A stretch of 27,426 bases of DNA, taken from NCBI GenBank assembly GCA_013265495.1, contig MU057666.1:345732-373157 (forward strand), read 5' to 3'. Of this stretch, positions 6,397-27,426 are shown one piece after another (position 1 is the stretch's first letter; every line of letters begins with the position of its first letter). The stretch comes from Vicugna vicugna. Taxonomy: Eukaryota. Made by a program: the position numbers and the translations under genes. The notes under the pieces are model-generated. The model saw only the letters and a list, made by a program, of their open reading frames with translations. It searched no databases and was not told the origin of the DNA.

Positions 6397-6421
6397 TGTG
6401 TGTGTGTGTGTGTGTGTGTGT
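6397..6421. repeat. (TG)12 microsatellite
   Basis: Read directly from the sequence. Confidence 0.97.
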
Positions 6422-6467
6422 AAAATTACTGTGTGTATGTGTAAAGTTATGTTGGGGGCTGGAACAT

Positions 6468-6953
6468 TGTGGTAGGCAGAATAACGACCTCCCAAGATAT
6501 CCAGGTCCTGGATCCTGGAACCTGTGCATGATACCTTATAGAGCAAACAGGACTCTGCAGATGAGATTAAATTAAAAATCCTGAGATGGGAGAAGTTACC
6601 CTGGAACACCCTCATGAGCCTATCTGTGATCACAAGTGTCCTGATAAAAGGGAGGCAGGGGAAGATTTGACTACCAAAGGGGAAAAGGTGATGTGATGAA
6701 AGCAGAAACTGGAAGATGTGTTTAAAGATGGAGAAAGAGCAGAAGCCAAGGAATGCAGGCCATTGGAAGCTGAAAAAGGCAAGGTAATTGAATTTTCCTC
6801 TCAGCCTTCAAAAGGATTCATCCTTGCTGATAATTTGATGTCAGCTCATGAATCTGATGATTTCAGACTTCAGACCTCCAGAACTATAAGATAATGAATT
6901 TATACCAATAAGTTTGTGGTAATTTGTTACAGTGGCAATAGAAAATGAATACA
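6468..6953 (+). mobile_element. MLT1D-like MaLR solo LTR
   Basis: Begins TGTGGTAGGCAGAATAA and ends TTTGTGGTAATTTGTTACAGTGGCAATAGAAAATGAATACA. Flanked by a degenerate 5-bp TSD, AACAT/AGCAT. Confidence 0.9.
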
Positions 6954-7334
6954 AGCATGAACTCTTACCCTGAAAAGCCTCACCTGAATCACAAACCTGA
7001 CTTTAGCCCCAGAGGTTATCTTAGACTCACTTATCAGCGTTATAAATTTGATTGATGTTATCATTCAGATGCTCACCTCATATATTTGATCTATATGCAT
7101 TAAAGTCACTTCTCTTTGTTTGTAGTTCAATCTGCAACCTGACCTAGAGTTAAAAATATGCATTTCAATGTTTCAGGAAACACCACATGGCCCAGGGTTC
7201 TTTCTTTGGAAAATTACTGAATTCATACATAATAATGTAACTGTTTATTTCTAAGATCCTTAATGAGTCACATGCTTAGATTTGAATTTCAAGAATATAA
7301 TTTTAGCATCAAACCAGAAGAATAAAATAGTGAA

Positions 7335-7950
7335 TAAGAAGCAGTAAGAGGACCAGTGAGAAAGAGACTAGATTACATATAGAAAAGGTTTGTCCTATAT
7401 GGGAGCAATAAAGACATACTCCAAAGATATTTTGGATCCAAAATCAAGTCTGTGATTGGATTATTGGGGGTTTTGGAGCCAAACGTAACTCTGAGATTTA
7501 TAACTTGGTCAACTGAGTCATGAGGTAACTGAGCTAGAAAATACATGTGTAGGAACAGGTATACAGATTTAAAGCTAAATGTAGCTTTCTATTGGACATC
7601 TAGATGGAGACTGATATTTAAAAATGTAAATGGAATGCAGTAGAGAAACCAGTGTGCCTGTATGGAGTTTGAAGTTAAGTGAAGCCACCTGGAGGTCTTT
7701 GGGACTAGCATGCTCCCAAAGAGCATGGAATAGGAAAGAGTTCCAGTTCCAGAATCCTAAGAAACATAAACATTGAAAACTCTGCATATAGAAAATCCAA
7801 TGAGAGAGACTGAGAAAAAAAAAATCAAGGGAAAGAGCATAAAGAAATGATGATGTTGAACCCAAAGGAAGAATTCTATAGAGATCTGTCGTCTCTTGCA
7901 TACCAGAAAGAGAGACAGTAGAGATAGGTGATTGCAAAGCGTGTTGACAT
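7335..7950 (-). mobile_element. Degraded L2 LINE internal fragment
   Basis: Purine-rich with L2-like motifs (tgtgattggatt, ttggacatctagatggaga, tggagtttgaag). Boundaries are approximate. Confidence 0.5.
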
Positions 7951-8845
7951 TCTGGATGAGATTATAGTTCATAAATATGTATATGTTTTTCTACCAATAT
8001 TTGAGTTAATGGGGTTAAAAAATCAAATGTAATGGGAATATGTACATCAAAAAGGGTATGAACTTGCAGGAATTTATAAAATGCTTCATATGCTTTCCCT
8101 TTTGTACTTTAGGGTATTTATTCTAAATTTTATTTTATTATAGTGATATGATAGTAAGTGCATTTAAACGTGGCCCTCAATTACCATGAGGATTAAAAAT
8201 AACTACTAATTCTTTGTGATTAAAAACAAATTCTCAGCCATTTGGTTTTATAGTATTCATGCATATTGGTGGGATCTTCCCACTGTCTCTTATAAATAAA
8301 ATGCTATTATTTCTGGTTAGAGGTTAGGAATTTTCATTCTCTGGAAAATGAAATTAAAAGAGATGAAAAACATTTATACACACTAGACACAAGGATAACA
8401 GTTGATCTGTGAAATGTGAAGTTTCTGTTGCAGTCATGAAGAAAAAGACCTTTAGAAAGGAAAATGTTATCTACCTTTGTGTGCCCTTTTAACTTGGTCA
8501 TGGTGCCACTGTGGTTATTATTCATGAGTAGTAAGGTCATTGATCTCCACTTGAATAAAAATAAGGAGAAAGACTTGTTTGTATGAAATAAGAAGGCATT
8601 CTAAAATTCATATTTTCCTACTTCATATTTCATAGATATGGAGTTTCTTTCATTTGATCAAAAGGCTAACAAAAATGACTTTTCTGTAAGTTTTATTCAC
8701 ATACATAGTTTAACTTTAGTAGACCCTGCTTTTGAACTAGTATTTCTTACTAACCATAAATCACTGCAAATTGAGCTGTTATAAAATATTAAATCAATTT
8801 AATTAATCTCCTCTAAGGATGTAAAAATAAGATATTTCTTTCCCC

Positions 8846-8993
8846 TTTTTTTTGGTGCACTGTCAGTTTACAGTGTTGCATCAACCTCTGGTGCACAGCA
8901 TAATGTTTCAGTCATACATACACACTCATGTATTTCCTTTCATATTCTTTTTCATTATAGGTTACTACAAGATATTGAATAAAGTTCCTTGTG
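8846..8993 (-). mobile_element. Short lineage-specific L1 3' UTR fragment (same family as 15225-15456)
   Basis: Poly-T then cagtttacagtgttg...ctggtgcacagcataatgtttcagtcatacata...ttcattataggttactacaagatattgaataaagttcc, the reverse complement of the element at 15225-15456. Confidence 0.88.
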
Positions 8994-9529
8994 TCCTTTT
9001 CACATTTTTAACATATTTATCACAACAAACCTTACATTTCCATGTATGGAGGACTTAGATCTTGTTTCCAGTGTTGGATCATGGCATTCTAAAGAGCCAG
9101 ACACTTCTCAACACAGTTTCCCCTCCTCACCAATGATTTGGGCAGCAGCAGTTCAGGGTTCAGTTCGGGATATGTGGTGATTCAGAGATTTCACTGTTTT
9201 TTCCATCAAGGCCCCCTTGATGCACAAGCACTGGCTATATGACTTCAGTGTCTCCTTTCTTAAGATATTTAAACATACTTTACTGAATTAGAGAATATTG
9301 ATAGGTCCCAATAAAGTGGGTGGTGAGTGAAGAGCATCTCTCTTTGGCTTCCAAGAAAGTTTTATAAAGATGTTTGGTTTCCTTCTCTGGTTAGATGATA
9401 CACTCTGAATGGTGATGGTTCTGTCCCCCGCCTATGATGGGGATGGTTGGCTGCTAGTTTGTTGTGATGGCTGCTCTAAGCTGGTGTTATAGATTCTCTT
9501 CACATCCAGGATTTGTCAGAACTATTCAT

Positions 9530-9692
9530 GTAAATTTGGGGAAAAATTATATTTTGTGTACATCAGTTTTGTCATTTGTAAATGGGATGGTAGTGCTTAT
9601 GCATGAGTAGTTTAGAGGTTTATGAAACAGTGAAAATAAAGTGCTTAACACACAGCCTAAGTTAACAGCAGGCATTTAGTAAGTAATAGCTA
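9530..9692 (+). mobile_element. MIR SINE
   Basis: catcagttttgtcatttgtaaatgggat...taaagtgcttaacaca...tagtaagtaatagctat. Confidence 0.7.
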
Positions 9693-10244
9693 TACAAATT
9701 AGTATATAATGATATGTGCATTATATGTTATATAAAATTATATATTACTAGTGACTTATGGAAATGTAGGCCTGACTGGTTAATCATGGAGGAAGCCTCC
9801 TTTATTCCTCACTATGATATTGTTTAACCTAAGCCCAACACCTGGCATATCTGAAGACAGAAACATAGTAAAGGCTATTATGATCGGGTCAGTTGACTAT
9901 TTTGATTCTACTTCCACAGCATATAATACAGTATTCTGATATCCCACCTTTTTTAATGCAGACCTTGGGAATGATTTCAGAAGTTAAAAAAAAAAAAGGA
10001 AAAGAAAAGGCAGGATATGCGCTAACATCTTTAGGTTCACGTATCATCGACTGAAGTCTGCAGATAATTGAGCACAGTCTACGTGCCAGAAAAGGTTGCA
10101 GGCACTAATGTCATGCTAAGTGTTTTGTGAATTAAGTCACCATCACTTGAAATTAAAATCTTTTAATGTAATAGTACAAACTGGCCTACCGTCATTAACA
10201 GTTACTAAGGAAATTTACAATCCAACCTCATGAAAGAGAGAAGA

Positions 10245-10420
10245 AAATACTATTGAACACTTATAATGAGTTATGCATTTTGATTTATAATATCTCAATG
10301 AACTTATTAAAAACTGTAATGTGATATTTTATACATTAGATGAAGTAACAGAAAATCATAGAAGTTAATGAACTTTTCCAAAATTGGACACATAAATGAA
10401 TAGTGTACCTGGAATTCTTC
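10245..10420 (-). mobile_element. Degraded MIR SINE
   Basis: tattgaacacttataatg...tagatgaagtaacaga...gaagttaatgaacttttccaaa. Confidence 0.55.
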
Positions 10421-10919
10421 CCAATATAATATTTCAAGTTTTAGACATTAAACATTAACATAACCAAACTAAAATATGAATTTGTTATTATTCATTTTAC
10501 ATTCATAAAATGCTTGTAGCCAATTCATGACTGTTAGAAAATAGAATCAAATAGTTGGATATTAGAGGTAGAAAATGTTTTGCAGGGAAAGAATATATCA
10601 TATGTCTTTTCTTTTTCTCCTTTTTTTGTAGCTTCTTTTAAGAGGAATTAGGAAAACAGGATTTTAAGATGTTTATCAGATTTCTAAATGATATCTTATG
10701 TCTCAAGATATAACAAAGCCTTAGAAGTTGTAGAATGTTATTAAATTCAAGTGCATCATAATTAGTAGTGTAACAAAATCATGCTTCTGATGTTACATAT
10801 TCTAAGAGAGTGATTAAGTTTTTCTTGGCATTATATAATCTATTTAGAGATTTATGTTATAAGACACTAATTTTTAGTTTCAGTTCTACTAACTTCAACT
10901 GGTGACTTAGGAAATAAAC

Positions 10920-11797
10920 ACATATATAGATAGATAGACAGCTAGACACACTAGCCTCCTCCTCAATTAGATAGACACATAGACAGATAGACAGAGAAAC
11001 ACTCCTTCTCCATTAGATAGGGACATACATAGATAGATAGTCACACCAGCCTCCTCCTCTATTAGATAGATAAATAGATAGATACACAGAAAGGCAGAGA
11101 AGCACACTAGCCTCCTCCTTCTCCTCCATTAGATAGATAGCTAGACAGACTAACCTCCTCCTCTTCCTATGTTAAACAGTTATAAAGACAGACACAGACA
11201 GACACACTAGCCTCCTCCTCCTCCTCAATTAGGTACATAGATAGATAGAGACAGACAGACAGACACACATACAGGCAGACACAAGAGCCTCCTCCTCCTC
11301 AATAGACACATACAAACACACACTAGCCTCCTTCTCCTCAGTTAGGTAAATAGACATACTAGCCTTCTCCTCTTCCTGTATTAGATAGATATAAAGACAG
11401 ACAGACACAGTAGCCTCTTCCTCCACCTCAGTTAGGTAGATAGACACACTAGCCTCTTCCTCTATTAGATAGCTAAACAGATGCATAGACTGAAAGACAG
11501 ACACTAGCCTTCTCTGCCTCTGTTAGATCGATAGACATACAGATAGACAGACACACTAGCCACCTCCTCCTCCATTAGGTAGATAGATATACAGACAGAC
11601 AGACAGGCAGTCAGGCAGACAGACTGACTGACACACACTTGTCTCCTCCTTCTCCGTTAGACAGTCAGACATGCTAACCTCCTTCTCCTCCTCCATTAGG
11701 TAGGCACACATACAGACAGGCAAAGACACACTAGCCTTCTGTTCTATTAGATAGACACATGTATAGGTACATAGACACACTAGCCTCCTCCTCCATT
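10920..11797. repeat. Compound minisatellite of about 17 units: ACACACTAGC(CTC)nCATTAG(ATAG/ACAG)n
   Basis: The anchor CTAGCCTCCTCC...TTAG recurs at about 10951, 11047, 11107, 11150, 11207, 11286, 11323, 11359, 11411, 11449, 11504, 11556, 11638, 11674, 11731 and 11780, plus a degenerate copy near 11001. Units are separated by GATA/GACA tetramer runs. Confidence 0.93.
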
Positions 11798-12120
11798 GCT
11801 GGGTCCTGTGATAGTTCTATTTTTAGTCTTTTAAAGAATTTCCATACTGTTTTCTATAGTGGCTGTACCAGTTTACATCCCATCAACAGTGTAATAGAGT
11901 CCCCTTTTCTCTGTATCCTTGCCAACATTTGTTATTTGTAGACATTTTGATGATGGCCATTCTGACAAGTATGACATAATATCTCATTGTGGTTTTGATT
12001 TGTATTTTTCTGATGATTAGCAAAGTTGAATGTCTTTTTAGGAGTCTGTTAGCCATCTGTTTATCGTCTTTGAAAAAATATCTATTCAGATCTTCTACCC
12101 ATTTTTAATCAGTTTTTTTA
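11795..12120 (-). mobile_element. L1 ORF2 3'-region fragment
   Basis: attgctgggtc...ccatactgttttctatagtggctgtaccagtttacatccc...ggccattctgacaag...atctcattgtggttttgatttg is the typical antisense L1 ORF2 C-terminal sequence. Confidence 0.92.
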
Positions 12121-12132
12121 TATTAATTAATA

Positions 12133-12790
12133 ATACATTCTTATAACTACCACAGAGCCCAATACACAGAAATTTGCCAGCTCTCCCAGAAGCTCCTCCA
12201 TGTGCTCTGACTCAATCATAGCCCCTTCCCTTCCTTTAAGTAAGTCTTTTCCTCTAAGTTACTGTTACAGAAATCACTTCCTTTTGTTTACGATTCCCTT
12301 ACCCAAGTATGTCTCCCTAGGTACTAGTGTTTAATCCTGACCATTTACAAAAAGAGTTCCTTGTAAGTCTGTTTTGGTCTACAGATTTATTTTTTATACC
12401 TTTCTTGAAATACACCTGTTTGATCTGTTTTTCATAGTCTGGATTTGACTGCATATACGTGCTACAATTTAGCACATTCATCCATCCTTTTTACTTCCTC
12501 AAACTGGCAGCTGGATGCAGAGGCATGATTAGGCTTGATTTGATCCTCTGTCAGATTGTGGAGTGTTATTTCATAAAGAGTCGCCTAGTGTCTCGTCTCC
12601 TTTTTATGATGTTAGCAGCTATTGATATTTGATGCCTCCATCCATTAATTTATTGGAGGTTGAAAAGTGTTATTAGTCTTTGAATTCTCTCATTTCTTTT
12701 TCGTTTACTAACAGAAACAATTTTATAAAGAGATGCTTTCCCTTATGTGCTATTTGATTCCTTAGTGCTACAGTACAGTTCACTTAGGAA
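12133..12790 (-). mobile_element. Ancient L1 3' region, L1MC4/L1MC4a-like
   Basis: Motifs tagtctggatttgactgc, tgatgttagcagctattga, ccattaatttattggaggttgaaaa and tacagttcacttaggaaa. Confidence 0.65.
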
Positions 12791-13425
12791 AATTAGTAAT
12801 GGTGTATTATTCCAGCATGCACTAGCTTAGCTATTAGGGCCACATTTGAAAGCCAAAACCCTAGAAACCGTCAATGATAATTAAGACCCAGCTATAATTT
12901 AAAATTTTTTAAATTGGAGAAATAAAAATTTGTCAAGCATATCAAGAGTACAGATTTTTCCTAATAAGGTAACAGCAATTATTAAATTTGACCTTATACA
13001 AATGCCCTTTGAGGTAGAGCTTGTAAAAGCTATTCTCGCCATTGGTATTTTTACACAGTAGAAACTATACAGCAATAAGGATGCATAACAACAAGTTATA
13101 CATCTTAAATACATAGTATTTCATTGACTACTTACACATCAATAAGGGAGGGAATGTTTCTATTTTGTTAATTTTTTCAGGCCCTTTGCCTTTCCCATAT
13201 AAATGTACATTAGAACTATATATAAGCATAGATATATGTTGAGATAAGCCTACTCTTGTGTGTAAGAAGAAAATCATGCTTGTCTTAGATATATGGTTAT
13301 ATAATCTTTATATGTAAATATTTATCTTTTTTTCATTCAGATTACATATGATTTAAATATTTTATTAATGTAACCATACAGACTTCTCTATATTCCCAAT
13401 ATTTTTTTCTTCTGTGTTATTCCAG

Positions 13426-13542
13426 TAGTGCTGCTTGGCTCATTAGACTCTGTTGCTGAGGTCAGCCTTGATGAGCAGGATAAAGTAACAGCTAAGCCGA
13501 AGGCCCTGCCAGGTGTGACTGATAATGAAATGACAGGGACAG
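13426..13542 (+). pseudogene. CEP162: CEP162 pseudo-exon A (117 nt): VLLGSLDSVAEVSLDEQDKVTAKPKALPGVTDNEMTGT
   Basis: Polypyrimidine tract plus CAG acceptor ending at 13425. The open frame matches human VLLDSLDSVAEVNLDEQDKITPKPRCLPEMTENEMTGT. The expected phase-1 donor position (13543) reads AT instead of GT. Confidence 0.92.
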
Positions 13543-13999
13543 ATGAAAGTGAGAAACTAGCTGTTCTCAAATATGTAAGGGTCTGTGACTAGTTGACTTC
13601 ATTTCCAGGGAAATACATATAATACATAATAATATATATAATAACTGTCAACAATAAAACTTTACATTTGATATTTTCTCGCTCTTTCTATGTAAATAAT
13701 CTGAACTTGCTAATAGTGACACTTAATGCTAGCAGTCTCAGTGAAGTGTGATTTTAAATACTTTTTAAAAATGAATGAATGCTGCTGGTACAAAGTATAG
13801 CACTGTAGATGAATATTAACTAATTATCTGTGCCCCCAGAGTATTCAGTTAAATTTGCCATGTGGAGGAGAATTGAGACTTTGGTTTTGGGCTTTTCCAT
13901 AGTTCTCTCTGTATAGGAGAAAAAGCTAGCTCACATCCCCAAATTCTGAAATGTCTAGGACTATCCAGACTTCACCAACAGTTGTAAAGGTCTTTAAGA

Positions 14000-15181
14000 C
14001 AATGCCTTTTCAGACTTTTTTTTTTTTTTTAAAGCAGTGGAACCCTTATCTCCAAAAGGAATCTTAGAAAGTACTCTCTTTACAGATAAAAATGACATTT
14101 TACCAGTATAAATATAAATGTTTACATTCATGACATTTACTTAAAAAATTAGTGATAGCAATTAAAACAGACCACTACTGTTAAAATTGGGAGTTATAGA
14201 TATTTGTTATATTCTTATATCATCAGACTTCCAATATGTTTATATATTTTGTTTTTGTTGTATAATACCAAAATATTCTTGGCTGATCCCTTAAATAGGT
14301 GCAAATGGGAAATTTTCAACTTTCTTTGCAAGTCCCAGTTGACTAGTTTGGTCAACTAAACCAACCCAGACTCTTGAAAAAAAGATCAATAGAAAGGATA
14401 AATCACTAGCCAACTCTGAACATCTGCTTGCATTTTATTTTTATTTTATTTTGTTTTTTAAATTTTTTAATCAAACTAATATGCTTGAAGAAGAATTCAT
14501 GTATCATAATAGTGCAGATGATGAATTTTCAAATACTGAACACTGCCATGTAACCAACAACCAGATTATAAAAAGCAAAACATGATCAAAAGCACAAAGT
14601 CCACTCAGATCTCTTATTTCTAGTCACTGCCATTCCAACAATCACTATCTAGTTTTACATCCTTCCATTTTAAAATGTAAATATGAAAGTTAATAAATTA
14701 CAGCAGAAATTTTCCATCAAGACACATCACTCATTTACTTGTTATCACCCAATTGAATATTCTGTCATGATGAAAATGTGTGCCGGGCAAGTACTGCTCA
14801 GTCTCACCACTGGTGAAGTATATGTCACATATGTGCTGTGATAGTGCACTTACACTGTTCTCAGTGAGCAGATATGAGTTCTTGTAAAAGACCAATATAG
14901 AGCTACAGCTTTTCTAGTCAGTGACCCATTATGGGAGGTTCATGTATGCACAGGACAGCCAGAGGAACTTGATTCTGTGATGTGCGTGAAAACAAAGCTG
15001 GAGACCCAAGCTACCATGCTGGTGGTCTTCAAAATATTAATTACATAAAAGGCACATCTGAGTGTGCAGATTAATTTCTATTACAGTTTTTATGTTTTAA
15101 AATGAAATTCCAATCAAACATCTGTAGACCCCATGATTTTCTCTGAAAACTATCATTTTGTTAAAAATATGAAAACCACTG
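14000..15181. mobile_element. Charlie4-family hAT DNA transposon remnant interrupted by an L1 fragment
   Basis: Left end caatgccttttcagactttt...aaagcagtggaacccttatctccaaaaggaatctta; right end tatgaaaaccactg (TIR-like CAGTGGTTTTCA). The internal assignment is less certain. Confidence 0.6.
14433..14660 (-). mobile_element. L1ME-like 3' fragment nested in the hAT element
   Basis: T-rich tail then gatgaattttcaaatactgaacactgccatgtaaccaacaaccagat...ctagtcactgcc. Confidence 0.7.
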
Positions 15182-15224
15182 CTATAGATTATAAGAAAAA
15201 CTCAGAAATAAAAATGCTATTACT

Positions 15225-15456
15225 TAATTTGGAAGTTCAAGATTTGCAGATACTAACTACTATGTATAAAATAGATAAACAACAAGTTTCTACTGTATAG
15301 CACAGGGAACAATATTCAATATCTTGTAGTAACCTATAATGAAAGAGAATATGAAAATGAATATATGTATGTATGTGTATGACTGAAACATGTTGTAGAC
15401 CAGAAATTGGCACAGCATTGTAAAATGACTATACTTCAATTTTTTAAAAAGTCAAA
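15225..15456 (+). mobile_element. 5'-truncated lineage-specific L1 (cetartiodactyl/camelid-type 3' UTR) with TSD
   Basis: aacaacaagtttctactgtatagcacagggaacaatattcaatatcttgtagtaacctataatgaaa...gactatacttcaat followed by an A tail. TSD AAAAATGCTATTACT (15210-15224) / AAAAATG-TATTACT (15457-15470). Confidence 0.9.
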
Positions 15457-15609
15457 AAAAATGTATTACTGAAAGAAAAGTCTATTAAGATTATCTGGGC
15501 AGTTATATAATGCTAATTTTTTTAACCTTATTTCTTAAATGTTCTTGATTCTGAAATAATTTGATGAGTCACTTACTCGAAGAGTGTACAGTATAAGTTT
15601 ATTGTTTTG

Positions 15610-15785
15610 TGGGCTTGGATTTGTATTCCCAGCCTTGCCAATTAGCAGCTGGGTGACATTGGAAAATTAATGCCTCTAAGCCTGTTTCCTCTTCTCTAAA
15701 ATGAGACTGCGGGATGATCAGCTGCAATAACATATAGTGCCTAGTATATTGCTGAGATTCAACAAGCAGTGCCAGCTGTGTGGTT
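15610..15785 (+). mobile_element. MIR SINE
   Basis: ggatttgtattcccagccttgccaattagcagctgggtgacattgg...cctctaagcctgtttcctcttctctaaaatgag. Confidence 0.75.
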
Positions 15786-16955
15786 CTCATTATGTGCATC
15801 AACCTCTATTAATAGTACAGATTATGTGAAAGAACCTGAAGTCATGTATATAAATTCCTATTGGCTGTAACCTGTTAAATTTACCTAGTATTTCAAAAAT
15901 ACTCTTGAAAAATATTCAATCAGTATATGAACTTAGTTTAAAAATTGAAAAGATCAGTGGTTTTTTGTTTGTTTACCATTTGTCTTCTGGGATTAAGCAG
16001 GCTTGGTTTAGGTGATATGTTGTCAAAGATTATCTTTTTCATTAATATGACTCAAGAAGTTCCTTGTGCTTTATTGTCTTTTAAAAGTTGATGACTATAA
16101 AGTGAGGGCCAGATCTAGCCTTTTGCTTGTTTTCATCTGTCTCATGGGCCGGTGCTGTTTTGTGCTGTGGCTGTGTGACTGGCACAGTCACTGGATGTGA
16201 CAGAATTCTACACATTGGGACCCTTGCCACTGCACAATAGAATTTGACACTTCTCAACTTGTAAGTGGGAAAAAAATAGGAAGCTTTTGACCTGTAATAA
16301 TACACAAAATAATGACACAGTATTTTCTCTTTCTAATGTAAAAGGGGAGAAGTCAGCCCTTTACTTTTCTCTCTATAAAATACATGAATAGAGTTAACAT
16401 ACATGACCCTGGGATTATTTTTAATATCCATTGGGTTAATGACTCAAATTAAGAGAAATATACCTTTCTCCTGCTCTGTTGTCTGAGCAGCCCCTGATGC
16501 CTCTCTGTCTTCCATTTCTAATTTCTGACTTTTAGGTCATTTGCTTTTCTGCATGTTTGCTCTGCTGTTGCTTTATGCCAGAACCCCTTCTTTCTGATAC
16601 CTCTCACCTGTTAAATTAGATTGAGTGTTCAGTACTGCTCTGCTGGTTACCATTGGGATCATTTATTTTATCCAGACTAAGTGATGCTTAACACCCCCTG
16701 GTATTTCTGTAGAGCAGAAAACACATTGTGCCTTTTTCTTTTGTTCATAAAATCAATTCTGTCCTTCAGTCAGGCTACTCTGAGTCTGATCAATGGTTTA
16801 GAGGGCAGGCAAGATCTTTTCCCTAAAGTCCTGCTGAATATCCCTGCCACTTAATTAGTGATTCTGCTCTGATGATATTCCCTACTTTTTTGTTTTTAGT
16901 TTATTTAAGCAACTCTATTGCTTTTTGGGCATGCTTCAAATAGCAGTGGTGACCT

Positions 16956-17480
16956 TGTTTCTGATTCCAAACTCATTCTGCTCACTACAAAACAGGCCAG
17001 TAAATCTGGAGACAAGGTGTTGGGGCAAGGAAAAGTGATTTTATTCAGAAAGGCAGCAGACCAAGAGGATGGCCAACTAATATCTTGGAGAGCCATCCTT
17101 CTCCAGTCAGAATACAGACTCCTTTTATACAAACAACAACAACAACAAAAAGCCACAGAGGAGGGGGTGTGGTTCATTGTTGCAAACTTCTTGATGCAGG
17201 AATTCTTTGTTCTTGCAGCCGTCCATGTGTGTCCCTGTAAACCTTCAACAAAACAAAGGTTATTCTCTCTTTTGCAACTTGCGGTCTCTACATAAGTGAG
17301 AAAGTGCTGACATCCTTAAAGGTCAGAGCCCCAAGAATAGGCTCTCCTGTAGATTTCAGGCTAAAGGCAACATTGTTTCACAAAAGGTGCAGAGCTGGCA
17401 AGACTAAGCCTAGAAAACGGGGCACAGTGGTTAAAACTCAGAACAGATCCAATGTGTTGTCAGATTTCTTCTCTATTACA
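16956..17480 (-). mobile_element. ERV1-class solo LTR (525 bp), antisense to CEP162
   Basis: TG...CA ends and a perfect 4-bp TSD ACCT (16952-16955, 17481-17484). Minus-strand TATAAAA (17123-17129) and AATAAA (17040-17045) are in LTR order. Confidence 0.88.
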
Positions 17481-17879
17481 ACCTGAAGCATTAGGTAGAA
17501 AGATAGCCCATTGTAAGGCATTCTTACACAGTCACATGTAGGACTTGGCTACATCTTAAGTTTAGAGTTGAAAATAGTCCCTCAGAATTTTATACTGTGC
17601 AACTCACAGATTATGTAGAGGAAGAGGAGGCTGTATATACTGTTTCATTTTTAGGTATTAATTACTTAGTCATGGATATCAGGAGAAAAGGAGACTGGTC
17701 ACCCTGCTCTTCTTTTTTCCCATTCTTCTATGACACTTTTATTCTTTTCTCTAACTTTGAAAATTCCACTGTTATTAATGAAAGGTACAAAATGAGTTAA
17801 GAAAAGACTTATCAAAATCTTAGATCATTATTGTCATTAGGTCCTTTGAGTTCTTTTTTCCAGATTTTGTTTCTTGGTG

Positions 17880-18990
17880 GAAAGGGGAGGAGTTTAATAG
17901 GGATGGAAGAGTGAACAGTGACATCAGGTTTTCTCTTGTGGATGACTGGGTGAGTAATCATGCCATGGCTAAAACAGCAGATCCTGGGAGTAGAACTGGT
18001 TTTGCTGGGTGTCGGAGCTAGCCGACAATCAATCAGGTCCAGAAACCTGTGCTGCAGGACTGAGAAAAGGAAAGACGTAACAAAGAGACAGCAAGACAAG
18101 AAAAGTTGGGGTTGAGAGGGTCTCACTCTAGCCCGCAAGACGCTAGGTCTAGAGTGGATGCCGAGTTTATTTTCAGCAGTTCTTTTATATGATTTTGACC
18201 CATTAGCTCATACATTCCTGCACGTAGGCAACGGCCTAACCTCGTGACTCGTATACATTCAACTCAGGTGATTGTTCTCTAAAAGATCACTGATTTGTGT
18301 GCCGATTGTATCTCTCCCTCTGAAGGTCCTTTGTGACTTAATAGCTCAAAGATGTTTCCTCAGGCATTAGCGCACCTGGTGCATTCTTTAGTAAAAGGGG
18401 TGGCGGGACAGAGAGGTCTCTTGGCACTGTGGGGTTTTACGCCCAAGTTTTGTGCTCGGCAGCCCTCTGTCACGAGCGGCTCCCCGCAGCTGGGGAATAT
18501 AATTAATTCATTTGAGGTTGTGTTAGATGTGATTTACTTATAGAACAGCCTGAATGTCTATTTGGAAATTTAATATTCAGAAAAGAATTAAGGACAAAAG
18601 ACATAGATTTGTAAGTCACATGCATATGGGTGATAATTAAGTGAAGAGTCTTGATGAAATTATCCAGCCCTCCTCCCTACAAAGAGAGCTTTTAAAAAAG
18701 AGGGTTAAAGATGGAGTCCTGAGATGAGCAATGTACCATAAAAGATGGAGATGTATCCATCAGAGTGGTGGGGAGAGGAAGGCGCTGTATGGAATAAACA
18801 GTTCCCAGGGAAAGGGCCATTTCAGATGTCTCACAGGGTGAAGAAAATTAAAACAGTTGAAGAAATTTAAAGGCTGGATTTGGCCCCTAGGAAATTATTT
18901 TTTTTGTTACAGCAGCTTTAACACAGGATATTGGAACACATATTTGATGGCAAAGTTAGAGGATTGAATTTCAGTGGAAGAAACACAGAA
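17880..18990 (-). mobile_element. Degraded L2 fragment split by the LTR at 18010-18488
   Basis: gtgacatcaggttttctcttgtggatgactgggtgag...tgccat before the LTR continues as ttcatttgaggttgtgttagatgtga...gacatagatttgtaagtcac after it. Confidence 0.6.
18010..18488 (-). mobile_element. Young ERV2/betaretrovirus-like solo LTR (479 bp)
   Basis: Minus strand starts TGCGGGGAGCCG and ends CTCCGACA. Perfect 6-bp TSD GCTGGG (18004-18009, 18489-18494). TATAAAA (18183-18189) is closely followed by AATAAA (18166-18171), and CpGs are retained. Confidence 0.9.
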
Positions 18991-19388
18991 GACAAGATGC
19001 CTGGTGGCATTGGGAGGCAAAGAGAGAAAGAGAGGCAGAGGAGAGAGAGGTCCTTACAAAATTATGTCAGTTTGAGAAATTTAGGAGTAGTTTTTTCCAG
19101 CACAGAGATTGGTTATGGGTGGTAGGAAGAGACAGTAACTAGTGGGGTGAGATTTTACAACGGCCACGTCAGGACGCATCTCCGCCTCTGACAGGGGTTA
19201 CTGAGCCTGCTGCGATTTCATGCTGGTGGGCTGTGCCACATACTAGCAAGTTTATATTTCACCCTGTCTTTATCACATCATATTGTCCCACAGCCTTGTT
19301 CACCATTTCGGGTAGATTAAGGGATGACAGTGTTTTATATTTTCATGTATTTGTGTGGTCATGCTAGAGATTACATTTATTTCAATTG

Positions 19389-19580
19389 ATGTTTCTTACG
19401 GACAGAGCAGCAGTGACATTGAAACTCTGCATCAGATGTATTGTCATGTAGCCCTTTCTTGGGAAGATGCAGATGAACAAGGAACTGAGAGTGATACAGG
19501 GGGAAATACCAAGAGCTCAGTGAAAGAGCATCCTCAGGAAGATGAAGGGTCCTCTAAAAACATCTCTACCATGGAATGTG
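19389..19580 (+). pseudogene. CEP162: CEP162 pseudo-exon B (192 nt): VSYGQSSSDIETLHQMYCHVALSWEDADEQGTESDTGGNTKSSVKEHPQEDEGSSKNISTMEC
   Basis: Lies inside ORF 19355..19600 and matches human VSYGQSSSDVEALHQAYCHIAHS...KSSVKGHPQENEENSKNISTMES. The donor GTAAAA at 19581 is intact; the expected acceptor at 19387-19388 reads TG instead of AG. Confidence 0.93.
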
Positions 19581-19886
19581 GTAAAATCTGCTTCCTTTGA
19601 GACCCTCTCTGAACAGTTCCAGTGTGGTGTAATTTAAATTCAATTTACTGTAGTGATTGTTTCTCAATCTGTGGATTTATAGGGTTTGTTTAAATGGAAT
19701 CTAGGAATCATTGGTTTAATTATAAAGTTAGAGCTGAACATAGGGTAAAATTTCAGTTCCTCCTATAGTATGTCTTCCCAAATTAAGAAATCACTTAAGT
19801 ATTTTCACATTATTTATGCTTTTCCATGAACTTATGCTAGTTATTTTTTAAATAGAGAGCAGTATTTGGGATCAACTAAATACATA

Positions 19887-19917
<31 letters not shown>

Positions 19918-19924
19918 TGTGTGT
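19887..19924. repeat. (GT)n microsatellite with one interruption
   Basis: Read directly from the sequence. Confidence 0.97.
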
Positions 19925-20171
19925 ACACCCATATTCATATATTTGATGTGTGTAGGGGGAGGGAGAGAAAATATATAGATATATAATTCAAATATAAATA
20001 CCTAAGAAGATTTTCTTGTACAAGGAGGTTACAGTGGGAAACTGGGATTATTATATGTGCCATTTTATTAATGTGTCAATCAGAGACAGTGTAATTTTGG
20101 TGGTAGTAGACATTAAATTAAGCAGTTTACATAACATTTTTGGTTGCTGTTTTTAACTTTTCTCCCCTTAG

Positions 20172-20253
20172 ATCTGCCCATGGTAGAGAAGCTGATGAAG
20201 CCTATCAGAATAGATTCCTTTAGGGTTGATGGTTTTGATTTACAACCTGTCAG
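20172..20253 (+). pseudogene. CEP162: CEP162 pseudo-exon C (82 nt): (D)LPMVEKLMKPIRIDSFRVDGFDLQPV(S)
   Basis: Canonical tttctccccttAG acceptor and GTAAGA donor (20254). Matches human DLPTVEELMKPIRIDSFGISGFDLQPVS. Confidence 0.95.
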
Positions 20254-20834
20254 GTAAGAGTTTTTTGGAATGGATTGTGCAGGGTGTTTATTTATTTATT
20301 GTTTTGTCACTGGAAACTTTTGGCATCATTTGTTCTGTGTAGCCATCCCTAGTGAATGATTAACAGGTAGCTAGTATGAGTCTACCTGTGAGACACTCCT
20401 CTCTTCCCTTAATATTAGTCTTTATCAAGTCTTTATCTAGTTTATCAAAATTCTTCTAGTGCTAATTTTTTTTTAATAGATGCTCCTAAAAATGTTAGTA
20501 CCATTGGGTAGGTAATCGTAAAGCTTTTCACTGGAAAAATAAAATCTCATCAGCTTTAATAGCTCAGGGACAGTTGATTCAAATGGTAAGAGAGAACATG
20601 GATTTTATTCTGTAAATGAGTCATCCATTTGCTTCTTTTTAAATGAGTTAGTTTTGCACTTAGTCACAGACCAGCCATCATCTCCTAGGGTGAGTTCTTT
20701 GGTCACAAGATAAACAGGCTTTGTGAAAATATTCCAGCTCCAGTAGCTTTTAATGGAAGCTTGTGGGACCTTGCTGTCATTCACCAGCACAGGGTACCAT
20801 GTCACAGTAACCTTGTCATAAGACAAGTGTCACA

Positions 20835-21190
20835 TCCGTTATCTCATGAGATCCACACAATAAGTAGGTCAGGCGTCTTTATCCCCATCATTCAAGTGAT
20901 GAAACTGAGGTGAACCAACTTGGTGGTGGGGCTCTCACATCACAAGAACCAGATGATGACAGCTAACATTTTACCCCTCACTTACTGTGGGCTTGATACT
21001 GTGCTAGGTTCTTTACATGTTAGATTTCATTTAATCTTACAGCAGCCCCATGAGATATATATATTCCATTATCTCTCCCATTTCATAGATGAGAAACCTA
21101 GGCTTAAAGGGGTTGAATAAACTGTTCAAGATCACATGGCCATAACTCAGCAATGCACTTGGATTGTCAGGTCTTTGATCTCTGTAAAAT
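20835..21190 (-). mobile_element. Two tandem MIR SINE fragments
   Basis: atccccatcattcaagtgatgaaactgagg, then acagctaacatttt...tttaatcttacagcagcccc...cccatttcatagatgagaaacctaggcttaaaggggttgaataa. Confidence 0.8.
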
Positions 21191-21687
21191 ATTTCTGTGA
21201 AAAGCCTGTCATCCATTCTTGTATTATTTGTTCATTTGTGTTTTCAACAGACAAGTTTTTGAGCCCCTCCTTGAACCCCAAGCTCATCATGAAATCCACA
21301 TGCAGTGATTTCCTGGCCTTGTTTGTATTGAGTGTGCTAGTTGAAAGTGATGTGCTGTAGCTTACCCTAAACCCTGTCTACTTACCACTAAGTCTAGCAT
21401 TCTTCCCCTGATCTGTGGTGCTAGTTAGTGTTTTTATGGGGCTGATTGGGCTCCCTTATCACTGCTGTTTGGGGCTATACTTGTATCATTGAAGGGATTT
21501 TTCTACACATTTTGTGTCTTTGTTGGCATAACTGACACAATTTTAATAATGTGAATTCTAAATAGAGATGTTTACATTTGTGTTTAAAAGCTGAAAACAA
21601 GTATACTTACATTAAAAGCATAGCAATAATTATAGGAATGTCAGTAGTAGAAAGTTGAGTATACATATCCAAAACCTCTTTAGTAAA

Positions 21688-22103
21688 CCATAGGATAAGT
21701 AATCCTAACTGCTGCAACAAATAATCCTTAAATTTTTAGTAGTTTAACATCATCAATTACTTATGTCTTGCTCACATCATAATTCCAAGTGTCTCAGTGG
21801 AGTTGGGGGTGGGACTCTGCTCCACATAGTCATTTAGGGACCCAGGTGACTTTCTGTCTTCAGCACATGGTTTTGAGGTCCTCCTGGACTCATCAGTCAA
21901 TAAGGAAAGGAAATAGATGGTTAGCACGCTTCCTTTTAACTGCCTAATCACAGGAGTGTTACCTCCCTTCAGCCCACATTGTGTTGGTAAGAACCAGCAC
22001 ATCCAGCTAAACTAGGTTCAAGAGGGCTAGGAAGTGTGGTTTGCTCATATGCCCAGAAAGAAATGTAAACACATTTGGTAGGTGTCTAGCCAGTCTCTAC
22101 CAG
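21688..22103 (-). mobile_element. MLT1K/L-like MaLR LTR
   Basis: aggataag...ctgctgcaacaaataatcc...ctctgctccacatagtcatttagggacccagg...gcccacattgtgttggtaagaaccag...gggctaggaagtgtggt...agtctctacca. Confidence 0.75.
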
Positions 22104-23200
22104 AAACTTCCCTTCTAACAGCCAAATATCCATTCCACTCTTCATTGAACAAAGACCTACTCAGCCCCTCCCCAAAGCAAACAAGCCAGAGTTCCATTCA
22201 GAAAGGTATCCACCTGGAAGGCCAGGATTCCCAGCTGAAGCACAGTTCTCTTTGTCAGGTTTCAGTGTAGCTCCTCATTGTCTACTAATCAGTGAGTTAA
22301 AAGGCAAGTTTTGTCCTTTCTTCCCCATCCCAATATGGTGGTGAGACTAAGACTACTCCTGTTCAGAAAGGAGAAGAATGAGGAAGCTACAGCAATCAGC
22401 AGTGCAGCTTTGAGATCCACTGAAAGGCCTTATGAAGACCCCCTACCTTCAAGTTGGGCATTTCTCCCTTAATTAGGCCATTATTCTGCTCTTAAGGAGG
22501 AACTACTTCATAAATATATTGTTCCGTGTAGCTCCTGGTTCCAGTGGTCTTGTGTTTCTTCACCACTGGCTTCAAGTGAAGTGGGTAACGGGAGGAGGGG
22601 GCACCCATCTTTGAGAATGCACTCTTTTCTCCGCCTGCTTTCTGCCTGCAGGTAGGTGGTTCTGAGGCTGCCAGACAAGTCTCTAGCCTTTTTTTTTTAA
22701 GCAGAGTTGTGGTTTCTTTGTCATCTTTGTCATTACAGCTCCTTCAGAAAGTTTTTTAGGCTTCTGATCAATTTGGTTCCAGTCAGTCCCATGTGCTAGT
22801 AACTACATTTAAAGAAAATTAGGGTTTTTTTTTTTCTCAGTTTAGTTGCAGCTGTCTGGTTATTATGAGGAGCAATAATCTTGTTTGAAGATGGCACCTC
22901 TAATGTGATATTTGCCAAGGAACTGAATCACTCTTCAACAAAGAATTCTCATGAAATCTTGCTTTTTCACAGCATTTTTCAGTGCTGAATCTTACTGTTT
23001 GAGTCCAGATGCAGAGAGTGAACCTAAGAGGCTCTGAGTTTCTCGACTCTGTTCCCTTGGATTCCTTCTTTAAAGACCAGCCCGTTCTGTCTTGAGCTCA
23101 TCTTTTTCCCGGTAGTATCTTGTCAGCAATAGCCAGTAGTAGCTGGCACTTAAACACTTCCTGTCCTCTCCTGCCATTCTCAGACTCTGCTGAGGGCGCC
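22104..23200 (-). mobile_element. MaLR (MLT1) internal sequence contiguous with the LTR
   Basis: Follows the LTR directly with MLT-int-like motifs (ccaaatatccattcc, ctcctgttcagaaaggagaagaatgaggaag). The right boundary is approximate. Confidence 0.5.
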
Positions 23201-23787
23201 AGGCTCAGGAGCCACAGAAATGATTTCATTTAAAAATCCTAGTGATTTTAAGATTTTCCTATACCATGATGAAATTCATGCATTTTAATATTTATATTCT
23301 ATGCTTGATTGATATAAATTATGGTTGCTTCTGTAGTTTCTACTGGAAATGTATGAAATGTTTTTCCTGCCTCAAGTGTATGTTGATGTTATAATATGGA
23401 TAACAGATACTACAAAAGGACCATTTAGAAATTCATTTTTTATTTTTCTTCAACAAAAGCGATCTGTCTTGTTTGGTTTGGCTTTACTATGAAGTAGTTC
23501 TTTGAGTAAACCACGAAATCCCTTATATTATACTGTATTAAAATTCTTATCTGAAATTTAAAACAATTATGTGACACCATGTGAGTATACTCTGTTAAAC
23601 AGAATTGTAATATGTTTAACATTAATGACCTAATTTAAGAGTTACAGGTATTAAATATATTTAATAGTATTATATGTTAATAATATAAATGTTTCAATGT
23701 ATATCATGTATATACATATATATTAATAAAACTAATATTTGAGGAGTCATATGCGGTTCACTCTGTGTGCCTTCTTTTGTTTCATAG

Positions 23788-24067
23788 CTACAAGAAACTG
23801 GCTAAGAATAAAGAAACTTAATTTGTTAATCCTTGTACCCCTTAAGATGAATCCAAATGTTATGTCTCAAGAAACAATGTGAACCAATTTTTGGACAGAA
23901 GTGAAGAGCATATAGTTTTACAAAAGTCAACAAATGAAGGTACAGAAAATAACTGTCCAAGAGTAAATACTGTGGAAGAACAAATAGATAAAGTGTACCT
24001 TGATATTTGGAAGAAAAAAATATTTGTTGTTCCTTGATTATTACCCCAGGATGACCAAATACATAAG
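23788..24067 (+). pseudogene. CEP162: CEP162 pseudo-exon D (280 nt) with 2 stops and 2 frameshifts
   Basis: Acceptor ttttgtttcatAG. Reads YKKLAKNKET* (TAA 23819-23821), a +1 shift before PLKMNPNVMSQ, a -4 shift near 23871-23875, then NVNQFLDRSEEHIVLQKSTNEG...VYLDIWKKKIFVVP* (TGA 24035-24037) LLPQDDQIHK. The donor reads GCAAGT at 24068. Confidence 0.9.
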
Positions 24068-24940
24068 GCAAGTGTATATAGTTTATATAGATTGGACATA
24101 ATGACAAATGATGTTACATAAATACTGCTGACAGGTATGTACTTTGTGAGCCAGCGGGACTGATTACAGACTAACCTCCAAGTGGATCCTGGGTATCTGT
24201 GAGCAGTTATCTGTTACAACACCCTGTCATCCCCAGATTTTAAAATGCCACTGCAGCATTAGCTTTCTTTTAGAAGCCATTTTTTTACATTTAAAATTTT
24301 TTAAACAAACATAGTCCAGAATTTGAGTAGCATAAGAAAATTAAGTTTATTCTGATGCTTTTTATTCAATCTTATCAGTAGTCTGTGTTGTGCAAAAGAA
24401 GGTAAGTTAGCATTTCATATAAATGCTGTTAGTGACTGTTGAGAAACTTACACATCTCTGTTCCTTTTTTCTGTGTTCTTGATTTATTCTGTTTTATAGA
24501 CTCATGACCACAGTATTCCATTTTTATTTTATGATTTTGACTTATGTGTTTACCGTAAACTAACCATAAACTATCTCCAGTTCCTTATGGAATAAGACAG
24601 TGTACTAAGCAGTTTTTACCTTGAGAAATCTGGAGAAAAAAGATAAGATTTTAAGTCATTTCAACTGTGTTCTTCCCCAATCTCCTCCATGTTCATTCTT
24701 GTAATTACATGTTTTCCTTTCTGGCAAGCCTATTTTGTTTTATTATTTTGGTGTTTTTTTTCCTGACTTTGAAGATGTGCTTCAGAATACTAAAATTCTG
24801 ATGAATTAGGCTTGGAGAACTTGAATGTCATGGCTCACCTTCTACAAACTGTGTTAAGCACTATGGTTTTGCCATCTGTTAAATCATATTTACAACTGTC
24901 ACTGATGTTTAAGTACTGACGAATTTGTACTTGTGCACAG

Positions 24941-25196
24941 ACTCTTAGATCTCAACTGAGTTCTGGAGAAGGAGGGGCTGTGACTGGTACACAGCTACCA
25001 CACAGGAAGGCCAGACGTGCCCCTCCTTTATTTAGAGAAAATCTCAGAGTGGATTATATGCATCAGTTAGGAGCTCAGGCTAAGGCAAACCCAGTTCACC
25101 ATTCAAGACATTTTCTACTCTTGCAAACTTTAGAGGACATTATAAAAAGCAAAAACTTCAGATCCATCCCTGCCTCAAATCAAGCCAGGAAAAAAG
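24941..25196 (+). pseudogene. CEP162: CEP162 pseudo-exon E (256 nt) with 2 deletions and a stop in the ancestral frame
   Basis: Branch-point-like TACTGAC (24914-24920) and cacAG acceptor. Reads TLRSQLSSGEGGAVTGTQLPHRKARRAPPLF, a -1 shift near 25034, RKSQSGLYASVRSSG* (TAA 25081-25083, human Tyr) GKPSSPFKTFSTL, a -5 shift near 25123-25126, then TLEDIIKSKNFRSIPASNQARKK. Donor GTAATT at 25197. Confidence 0.92.
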
Positions 25197-26509
25197 GTAA
25201 TTACATAATTTTCATAATAAAATTCAGTACATATAATGTATTATTTTATTTTCCTTATTCTCTAATTTCTCTGTTTCCTTCTCTCGTGAGAACTTTCCTT
25301 ATTTGTAGAAAAAATTTAATCTTAAGGTGCTACATTCCATCTCTGAAAGACAGATTCAGTTCACTTCAGTTCAGGGGGTTTGTCATCATTAATTCTAGGT
25401 TTTCCTGAATGAGACCCAGAAAATTTGGGAGGTGAATATAAGATAGGAGTGTCAAACCCCTCCTTATCTGGTTGGCTTTGTAATATCCAAAATGTTTGCC
25501 AGAAAAGAGGTATAAATCAGAATGCAAAGGGCAACATACAAATGAAGGTGGATACAGAGAGAAATATCTGGATATGAGTTTGGTCTAGTGTTGGGGAGTC
25601 TGGATGTTTTATCAGTCACCTGCATGAGTTTATACATCCCAGTTCCTCTCTGAGTTATTTCCTGATGGAGTCATCCATCTTGGTGGGAGGAAAGGGTGGT
25701 TTCCCACGCAGGAGCCTATGCCACTATTAATAGGGATAGAAACACTCAAGTCAGACCAGTGTTTCTGCTGCCTTTAGACTCCGGGGGGATGGGAGGGCAG
25801 TAGAGCCAGAAGCACCCTGTCGTTTCCTTTGTGGTTCAGCTGAATAGGCAACCAAGCCCATCGCTGCTGCCTGCTGTGACAGAGGAGAGCTAGCCTCGCT
25901 GGGAATATCACTTCCTGCTTAAAGCACCTCCCCTGCCTTTCCCTGCAGCGATCCATCCCAGGACCACTTGGACTCTATTAGAATTCTTTCAGCATTGAAG
26001 TCTCTTCTGTCTGCGTGGCTGTGCGTCCGCTGCAGCAGCCTGCGCGTGTCAGATGTAAGGCTCGTCTCTCCGCGTACAGGAGAGCAGCAGGAGCAGTGGC
26101 CTGTGCACACAGGAATCATTCTGTTGCTTAATGCAGCATCCTTTTCTCCTGTTCTTAATGTGGGGACCTCGGATCCCTTACCCTAACAGGCGCCTTGTGT
26201 TCTCTTACTTTCTCTTCCTTTTCTATGGAGCACCTGCTTTTGCGCTGCTGTCATCTATTCATTGTTGTTAATAACTAACTCTCCACTGGATCTAGTGCTT
26301 AATGTTAAGGAAAAATACTTGGGAGTATTTCCCAAATTTTAGAATCATCAAGAGGAGTGTAAGTTTTTCATTAATGTTTTAGGAGTATTCATTCTGTCTG
26401 TACCTTTGAGAACAAGAGAATGAAATTTTATTTTTAACATTATTTACTCTATTATATTTATTTTAGATAAACTAACTCCCAACATTTCTGAAGTTTACTT
26501 TATCCAAAT

Positions 26510-27426
26510 TCACTCATATAACAAGTGTTTCTGAGCACTGACCTGGGTCTAGGCACTGTTGGAGGCCCTCTAGGTATGTTGGAAGCAAGGCAGTGCCACC
26601 TCCCCTCCCACATCTCGTGGAGCTGTTATCTAATGAGGAGGGACAGACACTTAACAATGAGCATACAAATCAGTAAATGATGTTACATTCTAAGGAGAAA
26701 TAGAAAGCAGAGCAAGCGTGTCAGTGGTGGAGTCCAGCAGGTCACCATTTGAGATAAAATAGAGTTGGCCTCGGTGAGAGAACCCTTTGAACAAAGACTA
26801 GTAGGAGGAATTGGAATTGGCTGTGTGGGTGTGTGTGGGAAGCATATTCCAGAAAATGAAACAGTGCAAAAGTCCCAAAGAAGGAGGAATGCCTGGCATT
26901 TTGGGGATCAGCATAGAAGCCCACATGGCTGGGGCAGAGTGGGCAGAGGGGAGGGGGAGGTGAGATCAGGGCATCACAGGGACAGGTACGGTCAGCTTTT
27001 CTATGGCATGAAGCAGCCTTGGGCTTTCACTCAGTGTGGAAAGGTGAGCACCTGGGAAGTTGTGAGCATGGCAGTGACTTCAACTGATGCATCCTTTAGA
27101 CAGATTCCTTGGGCTGATGCCGTTGACTGTATGCATTCATAGGGGCACAGGAAGAAGCACAGAGACCAGTTAGAAGGGGATTTGAGGAATCTGGGCTGGC
27201 AGTGATGGGGCTTGATCCAGGGTGGTGGCAGTGGTGGTAAATGAGAAGCAGTTGGATAGGGATGTATTTAGAAGATAGAGCTGAAAGTCTAAAAGACTGG
27301 TTTGGGGTTGTGAGAGAGGCATCATGGGTGATGGCAGGGTTTGTGGCTTGAGCAGCTGGAAGAGTGCAGTTCCTCTCCAGATGGGCTTGGGGGTGGAGAG
27401 ATGACCAGGAGTTGAGCTGCTGAGAT
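26510..27426 (-). mobile_element. L2 LINE 3' region (runs past the window end)
   Basis: cactcatataacaagtgtttctgagcact...ctaggcactgttggaggc, aacagtgcaaaagtccc, tgaggtgagatcag-like motifs, ggcagtggtggtaaatgagaag, ttgagcagctggaagagtg. Confidence 0.85.

Follow-up and report, generated by a model that had tools for sequence, protein, structure and literature searches.

The window analysed here is the last 27,426 bases of a Vicugna vicugna contig (C621:345732-373157) and is AT-rich DNA of mammalian type. From 13089 to 27426 it is, in all likelihood, a non-processed partial pseudogene of CEP162 (KIAA1009/QN1), which arose by duplication at the DNA level, decays neutrally and belongs to a camelid family of mosaic duplicons. 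The segment combines homology to its parent gene including introns, an intact parent elsewhere in the genome, disabling lesions and a neutral substitution pattern on its own lineage. CEP162 is reported to act in transition-zone assembly and to be linked to retinitis pigmentosa (PMC12017076; bioRxiv 10.1101/2021.11.23.469779).

The CEP162-derived segment and its intact parent

Window 13089-27424 is collinear with 14 kb of the CEP162 gene of the same genome (contig C8256), introns included, at 80-85% identity (E = 0), and chance homology is therefore excluded. The parent stretch homologous to window 13089-27426 is C8256:13,909,286-13,923,272. The Kimura two-parameter (K2P) distance between window and parent is 0.115-0.19 in 26 of the 27 scored 500-column bins and 0.277 in the remaining one (25632-26116). 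Five exons in the window correspond to residues 239-549 of the 1405-residue alpaca CEP162, the parent exons splice to an open frame of the same residues, and the exon-intron boundaries of window and parent align. When the translated exon 19391-19591 was searched against proteins, 95 of 108 candidates matched at E ≤ 0.001, and these were CEP162 of many mammals. The best matches to the exon B translation were alpaca and dromedary CEP162 (82%), others reaching 58-74%. Each of the four introns that separate the five exons is retained and has its homologue in the parent, which rules out a processed pseudogene (retrocopy). The exons were aligned one by one to the genome's own CEP162 on C8256 rather than to the human protein, with the following result.

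13089..27426, plus strand: CEP162-derived segment; introns kept; starts 337 bases upstream of exon A within a parent intron and reaches the contig end
13426..13542, plus strand: exon A, residues 239-277; open; 15 substitutions in 117 bases
19389..19580, plus strand: exon B, residues 278-341; open; 23 substitutions in 192 bases
20172..20253, plus strand: exon C, residues 342-368; open, both splice sites canonical; 13 substitutions in 82 bases
23788..24067, plus strand: exon D, residues 369-462; 34 substitutions in 280 parent bases
24941..25196, plus strand: exon E, residues 462-549; 20 substitutions in 262 parent bases

Over 933 parent exon positions the window has 105 substitutions, and its exons remain ~89% identical to those of the parent. 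Exon D contains a TAA at 23819-23821, derived from GAA and found in this copy only, and a TGA at 24035-24037, which is the product of a 3-base insertion plus substitutions. Exon E contains a TAA at 25081-25083, derived from TAC and lying in the ancestral register. The indels are +1 (G at 23835) and -4 (after 23875) in exon D, both in the window copy only, and -1 (about 25033) and -5 (after 25123) in exon E. Together with the TGA-creating insertion, five events are counted (+1, -4, +3, -1, -5). Three of the ten splice dinucleotides are altered: the exon A donor reads AT at 13543-13544 (parent GT; this copy only), the exon B acceptor TG at 19387-19388 (parent AG) and the exon D donor GC at 24068-24069 (parent GT). 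The other seven are canonical.

A first-pass annotation, made from the letters of the window, had already described an inactivated five-exon CEP162 copy, and its coordinates are right to the base. Its three stops (TAA at 23819, TGA at 24035 and TAA at 25081 in the ancestral frame), its four indels (+1, -4, -1 and -5) and its two splice changes (AT at 13543, TG at 19387) are all present, and the +3 insertion and the GC donor at 24068 can be added to its list. As to the radical substitutions it had named, leucine to tryptophan occurs twice, in exon B (common to the copy on C4623) and in exon D (window only), and glycine to tryptophan was not found in comparisons with camelid and gorilla CEP162.

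A good GT donor is also present at 13575/13576, 32 bases beyond the dead exon A donor, and an AG at 19369/19370, 19-20 bases before exon B. On paper, the cryptic pair of donor 13575 and acceptor 19369 would keep exons A and B in frame with 54 extra bases; it is used by no annotated isoform.

The parent gene occupies C8256:13,893,585-13,962,847. Twenty-three exon-level matches cover 1330 of its 1405 residues (two short exons and two gaps, 75 residues at 1-15, 229-238, 905-922 and 1260-1291, are left out), of which 1318 are identical to alpaca CEP162 and 12 differ, and these matches contain no stops or gaps. This gene is closer to alpaca than to dromedary CEP162. An MRAP-family exon is located at 13,984,678 of C8256, 22 kb past the CEP162 3' end, and a T-box gene at 13.51 Mb, 373 kb before the 5' end. 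The neighbourhood fits the human gene order TBX18 - CEP162 - MRAP2. The synteny comparison proposed in the first pass thus finds an intact CEP162 where it is expected.

Exon A of the parent (C8256:13,909,640-13,909,756) has a peculiarity of its own. At four positions, all within 19 residues, it differs from both alpaca and dromedary CEP162, against none among the ~280 residues compared elsewhere (permutation P = 0.0006). The same four changes are absent from the copies in the window and on C4623. The cluster may reflect a real burst of change, gene conversion by a copy that was not seen, or a patch in the local assembly.

The duplicate family and the mosaic around it

The genome was searched with exon B and with a 2.5-kb query covering exons D and E, and all 9 candidates were scored in each case. 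In searches with longer queries, 37-40 of thousands of candidates were scored, and copy counts from these are lower bounds. The exon B search gave four places, namely the window (C621), C4623 (88%, one TAG), C939 (partial) and the parent. The exon D-E search gave six duplicate loci and the parent. Besides the window itself these are C4623 (91% identical to the window), C11569 (88%), C5574 (88%), C5600 (97%) and C8145 (87%), compared with 82% for the parent, and two short weak matches (75-76%) were also obtained. The assembly holds at least six partial, intron-bearing CEP162 duplicates in two subfamilies, in addition to the intact gene. This gives a lower bound for the copy count suggested in the first pass, where a segmental-duplicate pseudogene was one of the two options. 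The duplicate origin holds, but the single-copy duplicate does not, as at least six partial copies with common founding lesions lie in a mosaic duplicon.

The lesions differ in how widely they are shared. The TGA-making +3 of exon D is present in 5 of 5 copies aligned across the site, and the -1 of exon E in 6 of 6 copies holding that exon. The -5 of exon E and the TAC>TAA change at 25081 are common to the window, C4623 and C5600 only. The TG acceptor of exon B is common to the window and C4623, whereas C939 keeps AG, and the GC donor of exon D is common to the window and C5600. C4623 and C939 are broken within exons B/C, where the window is open. In C11569, C5574 and C8145, homology starts in each case at about window 20678, a 5' breakpoint unlike that of the window.

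Distances and trees describe the same two groups. In the D-E region, K2P distances are 0.130-0.149 between the parent and the copies, 0.097-0.110 between the window and C11569/C5574/C8145, 0.072 between the window and C4623, 0.021 between the window and C5600, and 0.023 between C11569 and C5574. In the DNA tree, the grouping (C4623,(window,C5600)) has support of 100/100 and (C8145,(C11569,C5574)) has support of 94/94. Segmental duplications are operationally defined by at least 1 kb at 90% identity or more. The identities of the window to C4623 (88-92% over 27 kb) and to C5600 (97-98% over 3.5 kb) place it in this class. The parent, at 80-85%, falls below the 90% threshold, and the founding event is older than such a threshold captures.

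The assembly evidently broke inside this duplication. C621 ends with the window, and two other contigs begin with 97-98% identical sequence: homology starts at the first base of C5600 (C5600:1-3515; 97-98% over 3.5 kb), and positions 1-485 of the 839-base contig C7185 match the last 485 bases of the window at 98%. C5600 may represent either a divergent overlap or a young copy in its own right.

The CEP162 piece is only one part of a larger duplicon. Over its entire length the window is collinear with C4623 and 88-92% identical to it, with homology continuing beyond the upstream end of the window; window 7003-8503 and 25696-26755 are missing from C4623. The remaining parts of the mosaic and its insertions are listed here.

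1..10900, plus strand: upstream mosaic part, non-CEP162; 89% collinear with C11790:19,634,360-19,645,354 (minus strand) and 87-92% with C4623
10930..11637, no strand assigned: tandem-repeat block of 49- and 52-base units rich in GATA/ACAG, plus (ACAG)n; lies between two non-CEP162 source segments
11795..13088, plus strand: 1.3-kb segment, 81% identical to C11790:3,265,789-3,267,081; ends exactly at the CEP162 junction
16956..17480, no strand assigned: repeat insertion of 525 bases, absent from the parent; 89% in C4623, 81-85% in many other genomic copies
18010..18488, minus strand: long terminal repeat (LTR)-like insertion of 479 bases, in this copy only; TG...CA ends and a 6-base target duplication, GCTGGG

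The junction at 13088/13089 is identical in C621 and C4623, and each source locus matches up to the junction and then diverges. The first ~325 bases of the 11795-13088 segment are a high-copy repeat. The tandem block at 10930-11637 is possibly a joint at which the mosaic breaks or recombines readily. Judged from its distribution, the 525-base repeat would have been inserted later than the founding duplication but earlier than the window/C4623 split. The element at 18010-18488 is probably an LTR, an assignment based on its ends and target duplication rather than on a library match. At least three other genomic loci match it at 94-95% identity. With TATA-like and AATAAA motifs on the minus strand, it points away from the annotated open reading frame (ORF) 870 bases downstream.

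Coding content was also considered for window 1-13088. A Pfam scan of 32 ORFs (28 in window 1-13088 and 4 downstream) gave three weak matches, all under the curated cut-offs: Vac14_Fab1_bd (21.8 bits versus 22.1), Mnd1 (18.6 versus 23.5) and DUF5845 (17.5 versus 28.5). The ORFs with the Mnd1 helix-turn-helix (plus strand) and Vac14_Fab1_bd (minus strand) matches overlap at window 6093-6425, and neither has a PDB sequence match at E up to 1. The weak Pfam matches were treated as chance, being below threshold and, for two of them, on opposite strands without a PDB match. An Rfam search of the whole window gave 0 matches.

A likely course of events can be outlined from these data. An internal piece of CEP162, from the intron before the residue-239 exon onward, would have been duplicated at the DNA level on the camelid stem. 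The duplicate would have been disabled early by the 3-base insertion that makes the TGA in exon D and by the 1-base deletion in exon E. It would then have been re-copied several times with differing breakpoints, which gave two subfamilies and at least six copies. On the line leading to the window, the CEP162 piece was presumably joined at 13088/13089 to DNA from two other loci, forming the mosaic segmental duplication. During later neutral decay the copy would have lost one donor and one acceptor site and acquired the TAA, +1, -4, -5, second TAA and LTR-like insertion. The locus would make no CEP162 function; a spliced transcript through exons B and C probably survives and is modelled by NCBI as a protein of 105-119 residues.

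Annotated models, selection and competing readings

The first pass had suggested that the copy might be unannotated, but three NCBI alpaca proteins are already read exactly from the window. A search with the 90-residue open frame round exon B led to XP_031530299 (isoform X2, Vicugna pacos), whose cluster also contains X1 and X3. The three proteins (XP_031530298, XP_031530299 and XP_031530300) are named 'centrosomal protein of 162 kDa-like', are isoforms of 105-119 residues, and match the window letter for letter over 19361-19580, 20172-20253 and then one of three last exons. All three start at the ATG at 19361, within a former intron, and continue through exons B and C. Isoform X2 enters exon D and ends at the TAA of the pseudogene at 23819. 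The other two end in exons of their own:

21251..21308, plus strand: last coding exon of isoform X1, in a former intron; AG acceptor 21249-21250, TGA at 21306
22973..22988, plus strand: last coding exon of isoform X3; AG acceptor 22971-22972, TGA at 22986

Each of these two new exons is preceded by an AG with a pyrimidine tract and is without homology to CEP162 coding sequence. Given how annotation pipelines work, such alternative last exons without CEP162 coding homology suggest that the models rest on transcript data. The annotated product spans about CEP162 residues 278-379. According to PMC12017076, the mapped functions of CEP162 lie in CC1 (448-906), CC2 (957-1121) and CC3 (1167-1386), and binding to microtubules, CEP131, CEP290 and the centriole maps to these three regions. 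The annotated ORF lies outside all of them, on the N-terminal side, and the exons in the window hold the first part of CC1 only and none of CC2 or CC3. Neither alpaca CEP162 nor the three short isoforms matched any family in the local Pfam library. Searches with the exon B region or the exon E frame found no related short proteins in other species; for the frameshifted exon E peptide there were 28 candidates in other species, none at E up to 0.001.

Two unnamed ORFs from public run assemblies, P0006 (122 residues) and P0097 (111 residues), consist of CEP162 exon B and adjoining intron and share 71-74% identity with the window. Their appearance is that of unspliced CEP162 from other mammals rather than of relatives of the window copy.

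Selection was assessed from exon changes on the window and C4623 lineages, polarised with the sister copy and the parent. The neutral expectation for the non-synonymous share is 0.788 (site ratio 3.7 to 1).

Window lineage: 22 non-synonymous (1 a stop) and 6 synonymous changes; observed share 0.786 versus 0.788 expected; binomial p = 1.0
C4623 lineage: 17 non-synonymous and 9 synonymous changes; binomial p = 0.097
Both lineages: 39 non-synonymous and 15 synonymous changes; binomial p = 0.24

The substitutions on the window lineage fit neutrality, at low power. The first-pass annotation had expected a ratio of non-synonymous to synonymous rates (dN/dS) near 1. This holds on the window's own lineage (22 to 6 changes at a site ratio of 3.7 to 1), but not for the raw pairwise comparison with the parent, where dN/dS is 0.54 (303 codons). 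Among the copies, pairwise dN/dS is 0.49-1.12, with one outlier of 2.42 on 130 codons.

The annotated isoforms raise the question of a young protein-coding gene, whose truncated CEP162-like peptide of 105-119 residues would act alone or interfere with CEP162 partners. This reading draws on the exact agreement of three isoforms with the window, including canonical splice sites and alternative last exons, and on exons B and C being free of stops and indels, whereas C4623 and C939 are broken there. The breakage of these sister copies in the same exons also counts against it, as does the position of the ORF N-terminal to CC1-CC3, where binding has been mapped (PMC12017076). Exons B and C have gained 5 non-synonymous and 2 synonymous changes on the window lineage, only 7 in total, and constraint is not apparent from them. 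The exon B region and exon E frame searches, which found no related short protein in other species, point in the same direction. A protein-coding gene is thus very unlikely.

Equally improbable is a transcribed pseudogene with an RNA role and no protein, for example one that regulates the parent CEP162 message. The multi-isoform models suggest a spliced RNA, and the exons are still ~89% identical to those of the parent. However, the corresponding exon divergence of ~11% is high for effects based on RNA-RNA pairing, and nothing in the sequence calls for such a role. A more speculative idea, to which we give slightly less credence still, is that the duplicon is still expanding in camelids and that this locus, with its new start and terminal exons, expresses a short CEP162 peptide or RNA affecting centriole or cilium biology, e.g. 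in the germ line.

Errors of assembly or sequencing, arising in a repeat that was collapsed or misassembled at the end of the contig, are a highly improbable source of the lesions. The window is indeed the last 27 kb of its contig, and a 98%-identical stretch opens another contig, C5600. However, the lesions are nested in a tree-like manner across separately assembled contigs, and exons B and C and the TAA at 23819 recur without a single difference in the NCBI models. Sampled words of the window occur at shares of 0.49-0.56 in 14 DNA runs (8 studies, four organisms), of 0.05-0.18 in three runs recorded as RNA and of 0.16-0.19 in three more that are presumably RNA; for the lesions such shares carry little weight. 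The loss of CEP162 in this lineage, with the window as its decayed remnant (a unitary pseudogene), was the other option of the first pass and is refuted: nothing beyond the lesions themselves favours it, the window copy starts inside an intron and abuts foreign DNA at 13088/13089, and the intact gene lies in conserved order on C8256 between the T-box gene and the MRAP-family exon, so that there was no loss.

Several observations weigh against a neutrally decaying partial pseudogene, the reading preferred here. Exons B and C are free of stops and indels, three of their four splice sites are intact, and NCBI calls the locus protein-coding with three isoforms, so that some product or RNA role is conceivable. 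Pairwise dN/dS between the parent and the copies is 0.41-0.57 for six copies and 1.04 for C5600, rather than 1 throughout, and the C4623 lineage shows 17 non-synonymous to 9 synonymous changes (p = 0.097). The individual lesions are known from this assembly alone, but the XP sequences bear it out for exons B and C, for the beginning of exon D and for the TAA at 23819. As for the parent, 75 of its 1405 residues lie outside the covered stretches. The dates given below depend on assumed calibrations and on 11 informative sites.

Age, known counterparts and significance

A protein tree was built for the 311-residue region from 20 orthologues, the parent and seven copies, the copies being read in the codon register of the parent and breaks being written as X. 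All duplicates group in one clade (92/82), which is sister to camelid CEP162 (100/99), and duplicates and camelid CEP162 together lie on the starred camelid branch (100/99) within even-toed ungulates. Camelid-stem sites were defined as those where three camelid orthologues have a common residue unlike the uniform residue of gorilla, pig and hippo (n = 11). The duplicates have the camelid state at 7 of these 11 sites and the outgroup state at 4 (95% interval of the share 0.31-0.89). Because of the tree placement and the 7 camelid-stem residues carried, the first duplication most likely took place on the camelid stem, earlier than the separation of camels from South American camelids.

The base of the camelid stem is about 65 million years old. 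With this calibration, the first duplication would date to ~35 million years ago (range about 23-50). Spread over that time, a tree depth of ~0.078 substitutions per site would correspond to ~2.2e-9 per site per year, a usual rate for mammals. The split between the window and C4623 would fall at ~17 million years, and the two youngest splits, about 2% diverged, at ~5 million years. Copies with the founding lesions are predicted in camels (Camelus), whose split from South American camelids is put at 11-25 million years ago in PMC13751797.

Compared with its CEP162 parent, the window has five exons and introns homologous to the part encoding residues 239-549, but it is an internal piece only, with 3 in-frame stops, 5 indel events and 3 altered splice sites. 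The NCBI CEP162-like models describe the same locus, which the database treats as protein-coding and which is here a decayed partial duplicate with an intron-born start and a pseudogene stop. Primate mosaic segmental duplications, in which pieces of several loci are joined and re-copied, were reportedly described by Bailey and Eichler in 2006. The window resembles them in the juxtaposition of three loci, re-duplication with differing breakpoints, assembly breaks and copies that are 87-98% identical to it. It differs in its camelid lineage and in an oldest layer of 80-85%, and no intact gene is shown to ride this duplicon. The human genes SRGAP2C and ARHGAP11B are partial duplicates with truncated proteins, a functional domain kept and evidence of function. 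The locus is likewise a partial, intron-bearing duplicate of a cell-biology gene with a short annotated ORF. In contrast to those genes, its CEP162-like ORF holds no mapped CEP162 domain and evolves neutrally on the available counts. Our literature searches on CEP162 pseudogenes and on alpaca and camel segmental duplications turned up no published account of a camelid CEP162 duplicate family. The locus itself is an ordinary partial duplicate pseudogene; what it adds is a multi-copy, camelid-specific mosaic family and its current annotation as a small gene.

These results remove a false lead, as camelids keep the ciliopathy gene CEP162. They also reveal an annotation problem, as the protein-coding 'CEP162-like' gene of the database is a decayed partial duplicate. 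With at least five more copies present, reads could be mapped, variants called and orthologues assigned wrongly for camelid CEP162. The nested lesions provide a small dated record of repeated segmental duplication in camelids.

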